A DNA stretch of 4,068 nt from a virus. Lineage: Duplodnaviria > Heunggongvirae > Uroviricota > Caudoviricetes > Straboviridae. The notes under the pieces are model-generated. The model was not told where the DNA came from and searched no databases. It was given only the letters and a program-made list of their open reading frames with translations. Of the stretch, positions 1 to 4,068 are shown one piece after another (position 1 is the first letter of the stretch; each line of letters begins with the position of its first letter). Position numbers and translations under genes: made by a program. The stretch lies in IMG/VR virus record IMGVR_UViG_2802429229_000002. The stretch is one strand, 5' to 3'.

Positions 1-73
1 TGGATACGGTGGAAATGACGCGGGTGCCGTCGTTAATCTCCAGCACCTGCACGCCATGATGATAGTCGCTCAT
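1..73 (-). CDS. FI: Contractile tail sheath protein, N-terminal 24 codons only; gene continues past the window start
   Basis: Reverse complement of 1..73 translates as MSDYHHGVQVLEINDGTRVISTVS, which matches from memory the N-terminus of P2-family tail sheath protein FI. A GGAG Shine-Dalgarno lies 8 nt upstream of the ATG (complement of 71..73). Same strand and expected order relative to H and G. Confidence 0.8.
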   Translation of the reverse strand, partial: MSDYHHGVQVLEINDGTRVISTVS

Positions 74-94
74 CCGTTTAACTCCGTGGTTAAT

Positions 95-167
95 GGGTGC
101 AATTATTTTCTGTTGTGCAGAGTATGAGGCGCTATTTGACCTGGCTGGTCAGTGGATGAAACAACAG
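95..167 (-). promoter_or_regulatory. Candidate late promoter for the tail sheath operon (P2 PF-like), weak support
   Basis: On the minus strand an AATAAT -10-like hexamer (complement of 102..107) lies about 30 nt upstream of the FI ATG. An imperfect Ogr-type dyad, TGT-N12-CCA (plus 146..163; consensus TGT-N12-ACA, 5 of 6), is centred about 50 bp upstream of that hexamer. A 7-bp inverted repeat (110..116 and 161..167) brackets the region. No exact consensus dyad is present. Confidence 0.25.
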
Positions 168-196
168 ATAAAGAAAAGGCGGGCAATTCGCCCGCC
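168..196 (-). terminator. Rho-independent terminator between the cargo ORF and the tail sheath gene
   Basis: Perfect 7-bp GC stem GGCGGGC (178..184) and GCCCGCC (190..196) with a 5-nt loop. On the minus strand it is followed directly by TTTTCTTTAT (complement of 168..177). It lies about 175 nt downstream of the cargo ORF stop. Confidence 0.6.
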
Positions 197-371
197 TGTC
201 CTGATTTGTACTCACTCATTTTCCAACTGACTATTTACATAGTCCAAACGCTATCAAATCTGACTGTCTGCTTTGAGCGAGGTGCTGACATCCGCATGAA
301 TGTATGGAGCTGCCGCACACTCTAAAAATGATAGAACGTCTATATATTAATTATCCCTAAGTCCAGTTTTA

Positions 372-899
372 TTAATCAATTTTATTACTTTTACCTGCAA
401 CCTTTTTATTACAGTGATAATAAGAAATAGCACTAGCAAAATAGGATTTTGTCATCGACACGAAAAAATCCAACAAATCTGCCATGTTATCAATATCAAT
501 ATTTGGTTTAGTTTTACTGACTTTAGTAATCTTCATGTAGAAGTCCACAAACTTACTTTTTTCTTTATCCGTAATCTGATAATTCAATTGATGACTGATT
601 TTATTTCTTATGCTGTTAAAGTCTTTTATTCTTAAATATATTTCATCATAAGGGGGTTTTGCAGGCTCATGTTGTATTAAAGCTATTTTTTGTGAAAATG
701 TGAGTTTTGCATCACCCCAAGCTAACGAAGGATATCTTAATCCAAGATAATCAGTAATATACTTTTCAAGGCTCAAGTGCGCAGTAAGAAAGGCACCTAT
801 GAAGGCAACGTCAACCCCATCAACACGTTCCCATATGTTTTCATTTTCATCAGTCATACCTGTATACACAGCGGTTGATGCAAGATCTTTCCAGTCCAT
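372..899 (-). CDS. Hypothetical 175-aa cargo protein with a HEPN-like R-N-x3-H motif; candidate lysogenic-conversion or defence gene
   Basis: Uninterrupted 175-codon ORF. AAGGA Shine-Dalgarno (complement of 906..910) 6 nt upstream of the ATG, and an in-frame TAA two codons upstream of the ATG fixes the start. By eye the GC content is about 30% against about 50-60% in the flanking tail genes. Residues 98..103 are RNKISH (nt 591..608). No predicted signal peptide or clear transmembrane segment. I do not recognise a characterised family. Confidence 0.8.
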   Translation of the reverse strand: MDWKDLASTAVYTGMTDENENIWERVDGVDVAFIGAFLTAHLSLEKYITDYLGLRYPSLAWGDAKLTFSQKIALIQHEPAKPPYDEIYLRIKDFNSIRNKISHQLNYQITDKEKSKFVDFYMKITKVSKTKPNIDIDNMADLLDFFVSMTKSYFASAISYYHCNKKVAGKSNKID

Positions 900-934
900 G
901 CTTTATCCTTTTAAAGGTGAATTTAACGAGTTTA

Positions 935-963
935 ACTTTATCTCAACTCAATACTTATCTCAA
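935..963 (-). promoter_or_regulatory. Candidate sigma70 promoter proximal to the cargo ORF
   Basis: Minus strand reads TTGAGA, a 17-nt spacer, then TAAAGT. The predicted transcription start is about 28 nt upstream of the ATG at 899. The match is modest. Confidence 0.2.
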
Positions 964-1150
964 AATTTATGAGTGGACATAACATCCACAAAAAACTATT
1001 AAAGCCCTTTTACCTCTTATTATTGATGAAAATGTACATTTTTATAAAGAATGTCGAAGAACCTCCTCAGTGGAACTATCAACTACACATTGCAAGACTA
1101 GAGTATGTGCAAACCTTTTGACAAGGTTCTGAAATATTCATGGTGGCCTT

Positions 1151-1185
1151 ATTATATCAATTTATCTTCACTTTATACATTAACA
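1151..1185 (-). promoter_or_regulatory. Candidate extended -10 promoter distal to the cargo ORF
   Basis: Minus strand reads TGATATAAT (complement of 1151..1159), a perfect TGnTATAAT extended -10. The -35 is poor (TGTATA at 17-nt spacing). It would give a leader of about 245 nt. Confidence 0.3.
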
Positions 1186-1203
1186 TAGCATGATGTTGAT
1201 AAT

Positions 1204-1227
1204 GTCCGCTCCTAGCACAGAGCGGAC
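1204..1227. other. Perfect 8-bp inverted repeat (hairpin) without a U-tract, 62 nt downstream of the tail fiber assembly gene
   Basis: GTCCGCTC (1204..1211) pairs with GAGCGGAC (1220..1227) around an 8-nt loop. Neither strand has a clear T-run after it. It sits at the GC-composition boundary of the AT-rich island. Confidence 0.5.
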
Positions 1228-1288
1228 TGTCAGATTAGGCCTTACTCTGTACTATAGCTATGTTAACTAACACAAGAGATCATATCAC

Positions 1289-1816
1289 TTATTGCGGCAT
1301 TTCCGGCCATTCAGGATTTGCAGGATCCACACGGCTGACCAGAACACTGTAGCGTTCCCATGCTTCCAGTCGGCTACGCTCCTCATCTGTTGCCATGTTC
1401 AGCCTGACAGCGCGCTCCAGTGGCTGAATAACGCTTTCCGCTTCGGAAAGTAACGCGGCCTTTTGTGATTCTGCCTGTTGTTGCTGTTCGTCTGCCGTAT
1501 AAATCCGCTTAATCACGGCACCATCCTTAAACATCCATTTCCCTGAGTCATCAGCACGTCGGTTGGCGGTAATATCAGGAACCTCGACAACGCTGAAACC
1601 TTCAGGGTTGAGCGTTGAAGCATCTCTGGTGATGCCGACAATAATATTATTTTCATCGTAAACAATCTTTATCGTGTCTTCCTGAAAATTACTTACTTCC
1701 TCATACCAGTTTTTTCCGTCTTCGGACCATAACCAGATAACATCAAAATTCTTTGTTAGCTGATATTGTTCTTTTGTTTTTGGATTACCTGACTTAATGT
1801 TTTTTAAATGCTGCAT
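1289..1816 (-). CDS. G: Tail fiber assembly protein (chaperone)
   Basis: 175-aa ORF starting 3 nt after the tail fiber stop, with an AGGTG Shine-Dalgarno inside the 3' end of H. The sequence ([20 protein letters not shown] ... [13 protein letters not shown]) matches from memory the P2 G / lambda Tfa family, including the characteristic C-terminal tail. Confidence 0.9.
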
Positions 1817-1819
1817 AAT

Positions 1820-4068
1820 TTACACCTGCGCAACGTTATACCATGTGCCATTGATGTATTTTTGTATTGGTCTGAATACTGCTGGATCATCACCATCGAC
1901 TTCACCGACAATACCAAGCCCCGTGATTACATGGCCTGATTTTTCATACATCACGCCTTTTTGCATGGTCTGAACAACACGTGTGCCAAGTCTGACATCT
2001 CTCACATAGCGGGAATCAAAGTTACCGTAATCCGAGGGATTAACACGCCCCGTAATATTTATGGTTTTATTACTTTGAATACTTCCCGAGACAAAGCGCA
2101 TAACATGGACGCTATTAGCATAAACATCCAGATTACCATCACCATTTTGTTTAAAGCCCGTGTCATTATCACCCAAAACAATCGAATTACCGCCAAGAGC
2201 ACTGGATGTTCCTATACCCAGAGCACCATTCAATTGACCACCAGATAACGGCAGTGCACCGACATCTCCCGCTGTAGGTTTTCGCGTTGTGGTATAAAAC
2301 TCAGACCAGTCAGCCTCGAATCCGTAACCGTCACGAGCAGAACGATAAAAAATACCGCCGTTCTTATAATTAACGCGGAACTGGGCGGCGGGGCAACTTC
2401 CTTCACCGATATTAAAATGAAGAATTAACGTTGATGCCCCACTAATAGTTGCGTTATAGGCTCCGCTACTCCAGTTCCATCCAACGGCTTTATCATTCGC
2501 AACGGTGTCTCCTGTTTTTCCTGAAGCAAATGCACCAATATTTTTCGGCGTCAGGTTAATATCTGATGTTCCATCAAACGAAACGTTATTAATTTTACGG
2601 GCTGTTTTCAGCTTTGTTGCTGTCGCCGCATTGCCGGACAGTTCACCAGAAAGGCCAGCACTGAATGTCTGTTTCGCGCCCCATGTCTGGGCTTCGTCAA
2701 TGATTGGTACTCGTCTTGCTGTAATCGTGCGGCTTCCCGGATTTCCTGAAATACGCACCATAAAAAAGCGGTAGTTGGCTTTACTTACAGTGCTGCGCCA
2801 TACATGCATTGAGCGTCCCGAACCAGAATCATCACTCGGACCGACTGAGATGTTTATCAGGTTGCCATCAATGACGCCCCAGTCCATACCGTCGGGAATA
2901 TTGGTCATGTTATCCAGCCGAACGGTTATCAGACTGCCCGGCACAAAATCGTATGTCTGCCAGTCCAGACTGGATAGTTTTGCCACTGCGCCACCGATGC
3001 CCAGATTCAGAGGCAACGAAAAGGAGTTATATACTTCTCGCCATTCGGTCCATTTGCTCCCGGCGTAGACGCGCTCAAAAGTGCGCCCCTGTGTGGTTTC
3101 TGATTTCCCTGTGGTTGTGTAACGCTGCCAGACAGACACACCATCAAAACGTCTGATTACTTCCAGTATCCCAAGTAGTGTCGCGCCAACGGTGTCCAGC
3201 ATCGGACCATTGGTCGCTTTACCTGTAACGCTGTAAATACCTGGTGAGGTTACATCATTCAAATCACCGTCGTAATAACGGCTTTCTGACTGGTAGCCCA
3301 CTCTTGACCACGGCTCCCACTGTGGGTTCTCTGCATCCCACGAGGCCGAAAGACAGCGAACATAAACATTTCCACGGCTGGTCGTGTAACGCTGCGTTCG
3401 CGAGTAACCACCACCTTCAAGAACTTCAAGGAGTCCCTGACCATAACTTCCTTCTTCCGGATAGTTGCGGTCAAATGAAGCGATTGAGCCACTACTGTTT
3501 CGCCATAAACCAAGATGCTCTGCGCCTCCGAGCGTGTTCAGGTCAATGGTTGTGCTCAGGGGGCGTGTTGCAGACTGAACCTGACGCCAGTAACTCCACG
3601 GACCGTCTGAACCATTCCATGTGCCAGAAAGGTTGCGCATATAAACATTGCCTGTTCTGGTGGTATAACGCTGCATTCCTGAAAAATTACCGCCATTGAA
3701 TACCTCCAGTACACCGACTGCACCGTCTTCAGGGAAATTTTTAGCAGCCGTCGCGTTAGTGGATGTAGCTTTAGACCAGATACCTGAATAAGCCTTAACA
3801 GGACCAAACGTATTCAGATCAGCATCAACCGGCATTTCGCCATTGTTTTTCATAAACGTCAGGCTGGTAACGCCAACATTGTCCAGAAAAGCTGATTTAT
3901 CCTGGATATCTGCACCATTCTGATTTTTCGCCAGACGTGAATTTGCGTTGTCATTTGCTGTCTTGACCGCTTTTGGCGTTGCTGCCAATGACTCACTGGT
4001 GCTGTTTGTTGCACTGCTTAACTGAGTAAAGCCTTTTTCTGTCAGTGTGGCGTCAGGATGGCGGCGGG
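1820..4068 (-). CDS. H: Tail fiber protein (P2 H-like); the 5' end of the gene lies beyond the window end
   Basis: The ORF-track start at 3988 is an internal TTG. The frame stays open to the window edge, reading RRHPDATLTEKGFTQLSSATNSTSESL before AATPKAVK, so the true start is outside the window. At least 749 codons are in view. It has an N-terminal SSATNSTSE / LAATPKAVK motif, three internal QRYTT repeats, and a C-terminus (GIGTSSALGGNSIVLGDNDTGFKQNGDG ... NGTWYNVAQV) typical of P2-family H. Stop TAA at 1820..1822. Confidence 0.9.
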   Translation of the reverse strand, partial: RRHPDATLTEKGFTQLSSATNSTSESLAATPKAVKTANDNANSRLAKNQNGADIQDKSAFLDNVGVTSLTFMKNNGEMPVDADLNTFGPVKAYSGIWSKATSTNATAAKNFPEDGAVGVLEVFNGGNFSGMQRYTTRTGNVYMRNLSGTWNGSDGPWSYWRQVQSATRPLSTTIDLNTLGGAEHLGLWRNSSGSIASFDRNYPEEGSYGQGLLEVLEGGGYSRTQRYTTSRGNVYVRCLSASWDAENPQWEPWSRVGYQSESRYYDGDLNDVTSPGIYSVTGKATNGPMLDTVGATLLGILEVIRRFDGVSVWQRYTTTGKSETTQGRTFERVYAGSKWTEWREVYNSFSLPLNLGIGGAVAKLSSLDWQTYDFVPGSLITVRLDNMTNIPDGMDWGVIDGNLINISVGPSDDSGSGRSMHVWRSTVSKANYRFFMVRISGNPGSRTITARRVPIIDEAQTWGAKQTFSAGLSGELSGNAATATKLKTARKINNVSFDGTSDINLTPKNIGAFASGKTGDTVANDKAVGWNWSSGAYNATISGASTLILHFNIGEGSCPAAQFRVNYKNGGIFYRSARDGYGFEADWSEFYTTTRKPTAGDVGALPLSGGQLNGALGIGTSSALGGNSIVLGDNDTGFKQNGDGNLDVYANSVHVMRFVSGSIQSNKTINITGRVNPSDYGNFDSRYVRDVRLGTRVVQTMQKGVMYEKSGHVITGLGIVGEVDGDDPAVFRPIQKYINGTWYNVAQV

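Follow-up and report, generated by a model that had tools for sequence, protein, structure and literature searches.

Introduction

HepS (STM14_3211) is a solo HEPN protein of the Gifsy-1 prophage of Salmonella Typhimurium, with structures deposited in the Protein Data Bank (PDB) as entries 9oij and 9oik; its tetramer is activated by the tail-tip protein J of siphoviruses and cleaves the anticodon loops of the tRNAs for Thr, Ile and Ser (PMC13043305). The same study listed 393 HepS homologs, reported HepS as a gene that moves between cargo sites, and selected solo HEPN proteins as standalone proteins that are shorter than 250 aa, have one HEPN domain only and contain an Rx4-6H motif (PMC13043305). 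The second described system of concern here is Z/fun, which lies between tail genes, is one of the two classical hotspots of phage P2 and carries defence-like cargo; the mechanism by which hotspot cargo is exchanged is, according to the papers on these hotspots, still to be worked out (10.1101/2024.10.15.618418; PMC13586616; PMC9122126). In this work we analysed a 4,068-nt stretch of the virus record IMGVR_UViG_2802429229_000002 (hereafter the window), which is part of a P2-like (Peduovirus) prophage with its genes on the minus strand in the order H, G, AT-rich island, FI. The island corresponds to a cassette at the Z/fun position, and its cargo is a gene for a 175-aa protein, WP_105282398.1, that we term HEPN-B.

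About 30% of complete E. coli genomes contain P2-like prophages, and it is established that the hotspots of such prophages yield new defence systems. The hotspot itself, its inverted repeats and prophage defence by solo HEPN proteins have all been published. What the present analysis adds is the recognition of an unannotated family as HEPN proteins remotely related to HepS, the presence of this family in the P2 tail-gene slot and its derivation there from a two-HEPN cassette by deletion, and the finding that the Z-region repeat element also marks cassette junctions outside P2.

Sequence and conservation of the cargo protein

HEPN-B is the sole substantial open reading frame (ORF) of the cassette (Table 1). 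The protein is annotated as 'hypothetical protein' and belongs to a 306-member cluster, and none of the papers searched mentions it. Among the family libraries searched it matches phrog_5483 (function unknown) alone. There was no match in Pfam, NCBIfam or PADLOC, and with no model of the family in these collections current defence finders miss it. Close homologs, at 58–88% identity, are confined to Enterobacterales and occur in 3 of about 185,000 species-representative genomes.

Catalytic HEPN domains are recognised by an Rx4-6H signature in which a polar residue (N, D or H) directly follows the arginine, a definition attributed to Anantharaman et al. 2013 (cited in PMC9122126). HEPN-B contains this arrangement, with Asn 99 directly after Arg 98. 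Across 21 close homologs the string I97-R98-N99-K100-x-S102-H103 is invariant, as are H41, E45 and D93-F94-N95. An exhaustive profile search returned 370 clusters, mostly of 160–210 aa, and in 49 distant sequences drawn from it (about 25% identity) H41, E45 and R98 remain invariant while N95, N99 and H103 are each present in at least 90%. R98, N99 and H103 are also invariant in a mixed alignment of 39 sequences.

The sole phage record that carries the cassette, ON470601.1 (vB_EcoM-569R9), has a run of Ns at the Rx4H motif of the cargo ORF (locus 1872-2423), and its cargo protein is accordingly annotated with 183 aa, 13 of them X residues; an apparent 8-aa insertion in the motif of this phage was rejected for that reason. 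As a separate observation, three giant proteins, P0039 (4271 aa), P0147 (3978 aa) and P0152 (2278 aa), match the family profile in 7–16 separate stretches, all of them over the motif region (profile positions about 84–145); these stretches may represent repeats of a HEPN-like module or an artefact of composition.

Fold and relation to HepS

No HEPN-clan Pfam model scored above its gathering threshold with HEPN-B. Distant members of the family gave sub-threshold matches to HEPN_Cthe2314, MAE_28990, RiboL-PSP, pEK499_p136, Csm6_HEPN and DUF4145, and nearly all such matches were to models of the HEPN clan. Searches against PDB sequences returned HepS (9oij) as the best match in each of three forms, with E=0.13 for the single protein, E=0.016 for a profile of the close family and E=1.4e-6 for a broad profile, the last spanning 47 residues only. 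With the broad profile the H105A mutant chain of HepS scored 100-fold worse, and the HEPN domains of Csm6 followed weakly. The alignment places R98-H103 of HEPN-B on R100-H105 of HepS, in which the H105A substitution abolishes defence (PMC13043305).

A first AlphaFold 2 (AF2) model, computed from the 21 close homologs, was discarded at a predicted local distance difference test (pLDDT) score of 54. The deeper alignment of 39 sequences, distant ones included, gave a model with a pLDDT of 85.8 and a predicted TM score (pTM) of 0.78. This model is an all-alpha bundle like the solved HEPN domains, with helices at residues 31–55, 68–75, 86–103, 111–127 and 139–170. In a Foldseek comparison with the PDB, HepS was the only high-probability match (0.97, against at most 0.18 for all others), and the match covered the full length at modest scores (E=0.09, TM 0.44). 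A search of the model against the viral folds of BFVD returned nothing meaningful, with a best E of 0.2.

On the strength of these comparisons HEPN-B very likely adopts a HEPN fold with an intact catalytic motif, and would be expected to act as a nuclease. HepS is its closest characterised relative, by a remote relation at 16–18% identity. With 175 aa, a single domain and the motif present, HEPN-B has the features by which solo HEPN proteins were selected in PMC13043305. The two differ in length (175 aa against 212 aa) and in carrier, which is a myovirus with a P2 tail module here and a lambdoid siphovirus for HepS, and the closest relatives of HEPN-B have a second HEPN gene in tandem.

Other HEPN proteins are further removed. 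In contrast to HEPN-MNT (type II/VII) toxin–antitoxin pairs, the HEPN-containing Abi proteins AbiA/AbiF, Csm6/Cas13 and the Tha system, the cargo comes without a nucleotidyltransferase (MNT) partner, a CARF domain, a reverse-transcriptase/polymerase domain or non-coding RNA (ncRNA) repeats, and the Pfam models of those systems stay below threshold for it. The HEPN-fold regulators MtlR and YggD offer a different reading, in which HEPN-B would be a non-catalytic regulator or adaptor, binding a protein or ligand and changing the expression of host or phage genes, as another form of lysogenic conversion. Its likeness to these regulators is structural only, there being no Pfam MtlR match at E<=1, and it lies in mobile-element cargo rather than in a sugar operon. 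Moreover, the HEPN-B family keeps a strict Rx4H motif, and the motif with its following Asn, H41 and E45 are kept superfamily-wide, which is the signature of catalytic HEPN proteins; the significant PDB profile matches are solely to nucleases, HepS and then weakly Csm6. We therefore regard a regulatory role as very unlikely.

Remnant of a second HEPN gene

The closest relatives of HEPN-B, 87–88% identical to it, are found in Dryocola (locus L023) and Superficieibacter (locus L022), and in both the gene is preceded by an intact gene for a 170-aa protein with the motif KKRNWLAH, here called HEPN-A. In L023 the two genes, HEPN-A and HEPN-B, occupy 2681-3193 and 3501-4019, respectively. Positions 1198..1083 and 1080..1028 of the window align by blastn to L023 2624-2817, with 84% and 78% identity. 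The next approximately 600 bp of HEPN-A, including its own Rx4H motif, are gone from the window, and homology resumes at 980..937. The deleted form is the one present in each of the 52 E. coli genomes that match, without a single intact pair of HEPN-A and HEPN-B. The alignment to intact two-HEPN loci and the shared deletion show the E. coli cassette to be ΔHEPN-A plus HEPN-B, a deletion derivative of a two-HEPN cassette.

HEPN-A gave no match in Pfam or PADLOC and is called a HEPN protein here from its Rx4H string. In a profile comparison with hhalign it resembled the HEPN-B family solely at the motif, with a probability of 1.4%, and for this reason it is treated as a different HEPN-like family. 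In Pectobacterium a 34%-identical paralog takes the same upstream position, and at the locus of a distant homolog the neighbouring protein has a faint DUF4145 match.

The 300-bp stretch upstream of HEPN-B (900-1200) was also considered as a type III antitoxin-like RNA or other ncRNA; it contains no tandem repeat arrays and gave no Rfam match at E<=1, and this candidate was rejected, the stretch being a gene remnant instead. A promoter-like candidate site at 963..935 overlaps the conserved segment upstream of the gene. A scan for sigma-70 sites found 6, not above the 4.6±2.0 expected by chance, and no promoter is claimed for this reason. Other small ORFs on both strands of the cassette had no support beyond the HEPN-A remnant.

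A possible joint action of HEPN-A and HEPN-B is what chiefly calls for restraint in assigning a function to HEPN-B alone. The functional unit may have been HEPN-A with HEPN-B, as a heteromeric nuclease or as a toxin with its regulator, in which case HEPN-B in E. coli would be a decaying leftover, inert or hitch-hiking. Several observations weigh on that side and against a working solo gene: the closest relatives keep the tandem genes intact, tandem HEPN-like neighbours recur in Pectobacterium and at the distant homolog locus, the deletion is identical in all the E. coli genomes, and the E. coli copies are too alike to reveal selection since it occurred. The ORF has nevertheless remained full length with every conserved residue intact and represents a large cluster, and its spread extends over about 50 complete genomes of diverse kinds. 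No HEPN-A partner accompanies the homologs in Serratia, in the phage encoding P0015, in a 186-like prophage and in the prophage encoding P0020, so the gene exists alone elsewhere under a ratio of nonsynonymous to synonymous substitution rates (dN/dS) of about 0.1–0.2. A decaying leftover is thus unlikely in our view, and we favour a HEPN-B that functions on its own in E. coli. HEPN-A and HEPN-B may have formed a heteromeric, mutually regulating nuclease pair, so that loss of HEPN-A re-tuned the E. coli version; the two-HEPN cassette and its deletion derivative are in this respect a natural experiment on whether small HEPN defence proteins need a partner.

Selection and genomic context of homologs

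Pairwise dN/dS values of HEPN-B against six homologs range from 0.10 to 0.21, and by this measure the gene has been under purifying selection. Homologs are solo in E. coli, Serratia and three prophage contexts, and paired in Dryocola, Superficieibacter and Pectobacterium. The P0020 homolog (61% identical, locus L011) lies in a P2-type tail module beside AbiGi (Pfam 8e-58, PADLOC 2e-31). The P0015 homolog is a lone opposite-strand gene in a phage that encodes a Phage_Tail_Tip protein, and the P0017 homolog, in a 186-like prophage, adjoins the CI repressor and has a PIN-domain gene close by. In Serratia and Pectobacterium the homologs occupy chromosomal islets, in the latter case beside the candidate defence gene DUF2971/PDC-S31. 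PADLOC matched these AbiGi and PDC-S31 neighbours and returned nothing for the cargo, HEPN-A or most other neighbours. No MNT partner was present among the neighbours in 12 loci, and the E. coli cassette has no other intact ORF; nor is there a constant partner gene across the homolog loci examined. The varied neighbours and the lack of a constant partner fit a self-contained defence gene that moves between cargo sites.

Two of the loci deserve separate mention. In L011 (4708-6177, minus strand) the 61%-identical homolog is followed by AbiGi and then by a 228-aa gene without any match, which may be the AbiGi partner; this locus holds two cargo genes or systems within one tail-module slot. In Hydrogenophaga a 30%-identical homolog (L020 1956-3766) comes directly after an operon of Multi_ubiq, ThiF(E1) and BubE, a cluster for ubiquitin-like conjugation, of a kind that has been associated with phage defence.

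Proposed function

By analogy with HepS, an anti-phage or abortive-infection function is fairly probable for HEPN-B. In such a scheme the product of the cassette in the Z/fun slot is a single small HEPN protein of one domain whose Rx4H motif is intact, and the lysogen would make this protein in an inactive oligomeric state as proposed from the HepS case. A component of an infecting phage would activate the protein, paired Rx4H sites would cut RNA, possibly in tRNA anticodon loops, and translation would stop. The infection would then abort, to the benefit of the lysogen population and of the resident prophage. The specific HepS-like form of this scheme, with an inactive oligomer opened by a phage structural protein and subsequent cleavage of tRNA anticodons, is put forward tentatively. 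As HepS is a solved and mechanistically understood distant relative, the function of HEPN-B is directly testable with R98A and H103A substitutions and a phage panel.

The nuclease might instead serve the phage that carries it, by degrading host or competitor RNA during P2 lytic growth or by acting against P4-type satellites, with expression by late read-through from H and G. The cargo gene is indeed oriented like H and G, the hairpin that follows G lacks a T-tract and was not predicted to be a terminator, and the first strong terminator, at 197..177, comes after the cargo. On the other hand, homologs are found in non-tail and non-phage contexts and in either orientation to their neighbours, slot cargo in other phages often runs on the opposite strand (Fun(Z) and EC58 ORF1, for instance), and the published precedents for solo HEPN proteins in prophages are of host defence (PMC13043305). 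A role in phage growth is for these reasons quite unlikely, and defence of the host is the reading that we prefer.

The cassette and the Z/fun slot

The island between the tail fibre assembly and tail sheath genes had been predicted from its composition, and it is real and far beyond chance. GC content is 0.316 over 320-1203 and 0.475 in the flanks (1-230 plus 1289-4068; chi-square p=5e-17), the lowest value of any 884-bp window inside G and H is 0.419, and GC at third codon positions (GC3) is 0.278 in the cargo ORF compared with 0.432 in G and 0.427 in H. The cassette is thus foreign in composition. The 50–60% GC that the original prediction gave for H and G is too high, since they average 48% and 45%, respectively, and 53–59% is reached solely in local 100-bp windows at about 1281-1500.

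The full window is 98% identical to one phage record, vB_EcoM-569R9, and other P2-like phages match 74–77% of it. Alignment by blastn to five other P2-like phages places the homology breakpoints at 280-291 towards FI (202 in a single phage) and at 1201-1216 towards G. The predicted bounds of 320..1203 therefore agree within 2 bp at the right end and are off by about 30 bp at the left. The G/H and FI flanks of the relatives are about 83–95% identical, yet the content of the slot is unrelated: a 177–181-aa ORF, HAD and NUDIX genes, a two-gene set, pseudogenes, or a 303-aa 'lysogenic conversion protein', and, encoded on the opposite strand in reference P2, the 528-aa fun(Z). The GenBank entries AJ512683 and AJ512685 label the slot 'Z-region' and annotate flanking inverted repeats. 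Positions 292..1201 are almost certainly horizontally exchanged cargo in the P2 Z/fun hotspot; the alignment between shared breakpoints bears out the proposed horizontal acquisition, and the G-FI position, the differing content and the annotated Z-region repeats confirm the variable hotspot that had been suggested. The suggestion that the cargo sits within an operon does not hold, because the V-operon terminator is annotated after G in the P2 record and the strong terminator 197..177 precedes FI; the slot lies between two late operons, V (H-G) and F (FI).

The locus resembles the P2 slot with Fun(Z) (AF063097; AJ512681-85) in its G-FI position, flanking inverted repeats, AT-rich foreign cargo and presumed host-benefit role. 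It differs in that the cargo is unrelated and shares the strand of the late genes, to which fun(Z) runs opposite. BLASTP against Fun(Z) (AAD03288, 528 aa) gave E=1.9 and no homology, and candidate relationships to the 181-aa and 177-aa ORFs of other P2 variants and to Fun(Z) were all rejected (E=0.35–1.9).

The P2-type FI junction occurs at 1914 places in 1652 of 5426 complete E. coli genomes, and the same cassette in 49–52 of the 5426 (about 3% of such slots) as well as in the one phage record. These carriers, about 50 diverse complete genomes, originate from humans, animals, water and soil. One lysogen, strain JJ2434 (CP013835), has 99.9% identity.

Palindromic elements at the cassette ends

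Arms at the two breakpoints form the region's longest inverted repeat, with 28 of 35 positions matching compared with 17.7±1.1 in shuffled sequence, a value reached by none of 300 shuffles. A palindromic element thus has copies at both ends of the cassette. The G-side arm includes a stable hairpin (-17.3 kcal/mol, z=-3.5) and lies within the stretch 1205-1316, which matches the 'left inverted repeat' of AJ512685. The FI-side arm folds weakly (z=+1.25) and adjoins the stretch 201-280, which matches the 'right inverted repeat' of the same entry. As left and right inverted repeats of the Z-region in AJ512683 and AJ512685, these breakpoint repeats were already known. The element has a core of ATGTCCGCT-N8-10-AGCGGAC within a repeat of about 35–70 nt, and a core GTCCGCT-N-AGCGGAC is present at the same G-side junction in P2-like phages that carry four different cargos, and Serratia has several copies of it.

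Similar copies accompany the HEPN genes outside P2. In L022 and L023 an arm-like copy precedes the two-HEPN cassette, with no homolog of G or FI within 3.5 kb. In Pectobacterium sp. PL64 (CP092070, L010 3115-7706) arm-like copies at 3123-3148, 4613-4634 and 7680-7705 delimit first a 166-aa HEPN paralog with HEPN-B and then a 368-aa unknown protein with DUF2971/PDC-S31, so that the locus looks like a small array of cassettes. Two Serratia rubidaea strains (L013 and L014, around 3866) have different upstream flanks, and homology between them starts exactly at a copy of the element (ATGTCCGCTTTTCGCTCACAGCGGAC) about 135 bp upstream of the HEPN gene; an inverted arm copy follows about 90 bp after the gene. 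Further copies of this 64–72-bp Serratia element, which is a dispersed repeat family, are located at L013 2222-2287 and L014 343-408.

The window, Serratia and Pectobacterium have in common a layout of arm, HEPN gene or genes, about 80–100 bp, and inverted arm, which suggests recombination at a dispersed palindromic element as a possible route of exchange. Site-specific recombination at this slot was reportedly first discussed in a 2004 study (Nilsson). No recombinase for exchange of the cassette was identified. It is a speculative and on balance doubtful extension that the palindromes are the sites of an exchange system by which small cassettes for defence pass between the Z-slot of P2 and arrays in the chromosomes of Enterobacterales; such a system may be somewhat integron-like, yet without a linked integrase. 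As junction elements common to phage and chromosomal sites, the palindromes offer a handle on the exchange of hotspot cargo.

Other features of the window

The features of the window are compiled in Table 1. The late promoter P_F is presumably located within the conserved region 74..176 on the minus strand, as its position and established knowledge of P2 lead us to expect. The terminator at 197..177 folds with -20.1 kcal/mol (z=-4.4), lies within the part kept in every relative, and would halt cassette or read-through transcripts ahead of FI. The portion of H in the window is covered by the 2736-nt GpH gene of ON470601.

Table 1. Features of the 4,068-nt window, listed by position.
Position	Strand	Feature	Basis
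1..73	-	Tail sheath gene FI, 5' end (MSDYHHGVQVLEINDGTRVISTV...), first 24 codons	Annotation as tail sheath monomer GpFI, in ON470601 and in five further records
74..176	-	Conserved region upstream of FI	94–96% identity across all P2-like relatives
177..197	-	Predicted intrinsic terminator: 9-bp stem with 7 G-C pairs, then TTTTCTTTATC	Prediction
257..291	.	FI-side arm of the breakpoint inverted repeat, degenerate copy	35 nt, 80% complementary to 1202-1236
292..1201	-	Exchanged cassette (AT-rich cargo)	No homology to other P2-like phages inside
372..899	-	Cargo gene HEPN-B, 175 aa, WP_105282398.1, predicted small single-domain HEPN protein	
591..608	-	Rx4H HEPN catalytic motif, codons R98-N99-K100-I101-S102-H103	Conservation; alignment to HepS R100-H105
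906..910	-	Shine-Dalgarno-like AAGGA, 6 nt ahead of the HEPN-B ATG	Read from sequence
937..980	-	Segment upstream of HEPN-B	80% identical to Dryocola L023 3420-3463
1028..1198	-	HEPN-A remnant: upstream region, AAGG, ATG (1141..1139), about 45 codons, 19-bp deletion	blastn; three-way alignment
1202..1236	.	G-side arm of the breakpoint inverted repeat, with 9-bp-stem hairpin 1204..1227	
1289..1816	-	Tail fibre assembly gene G	Pfam Caudo_TAP 1e-36; phrog_136 2e-82; annotations of relatives
1820..>4068	-	Tail fibre gene H, C-terminal ~750 codons, runs past the window end	Pfam Phage_fiber_2, gp37_C

A 45-aa ORF at 93-230 on the plus strand bears the label 'hypothetical protein' in the annotation of several relatives (URC09634 and YP_009877233 among others). 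Because this ORF overlaps both the conserved terminator 177-197 and the region upstream of FI, it is probably an annotation artefact. GC dips a second time, to 0.35, across the 5' end of G and the adjoining 3' end of H (window 1600-1900). Over its 3' half (1289-1500), G shares 84–89% identity with the genes for tail fibre assembly in Mu, D108, P1, D6 and SfMu, and the G/H stretch beside the cargo slot looks like a known mosaic host-range module.

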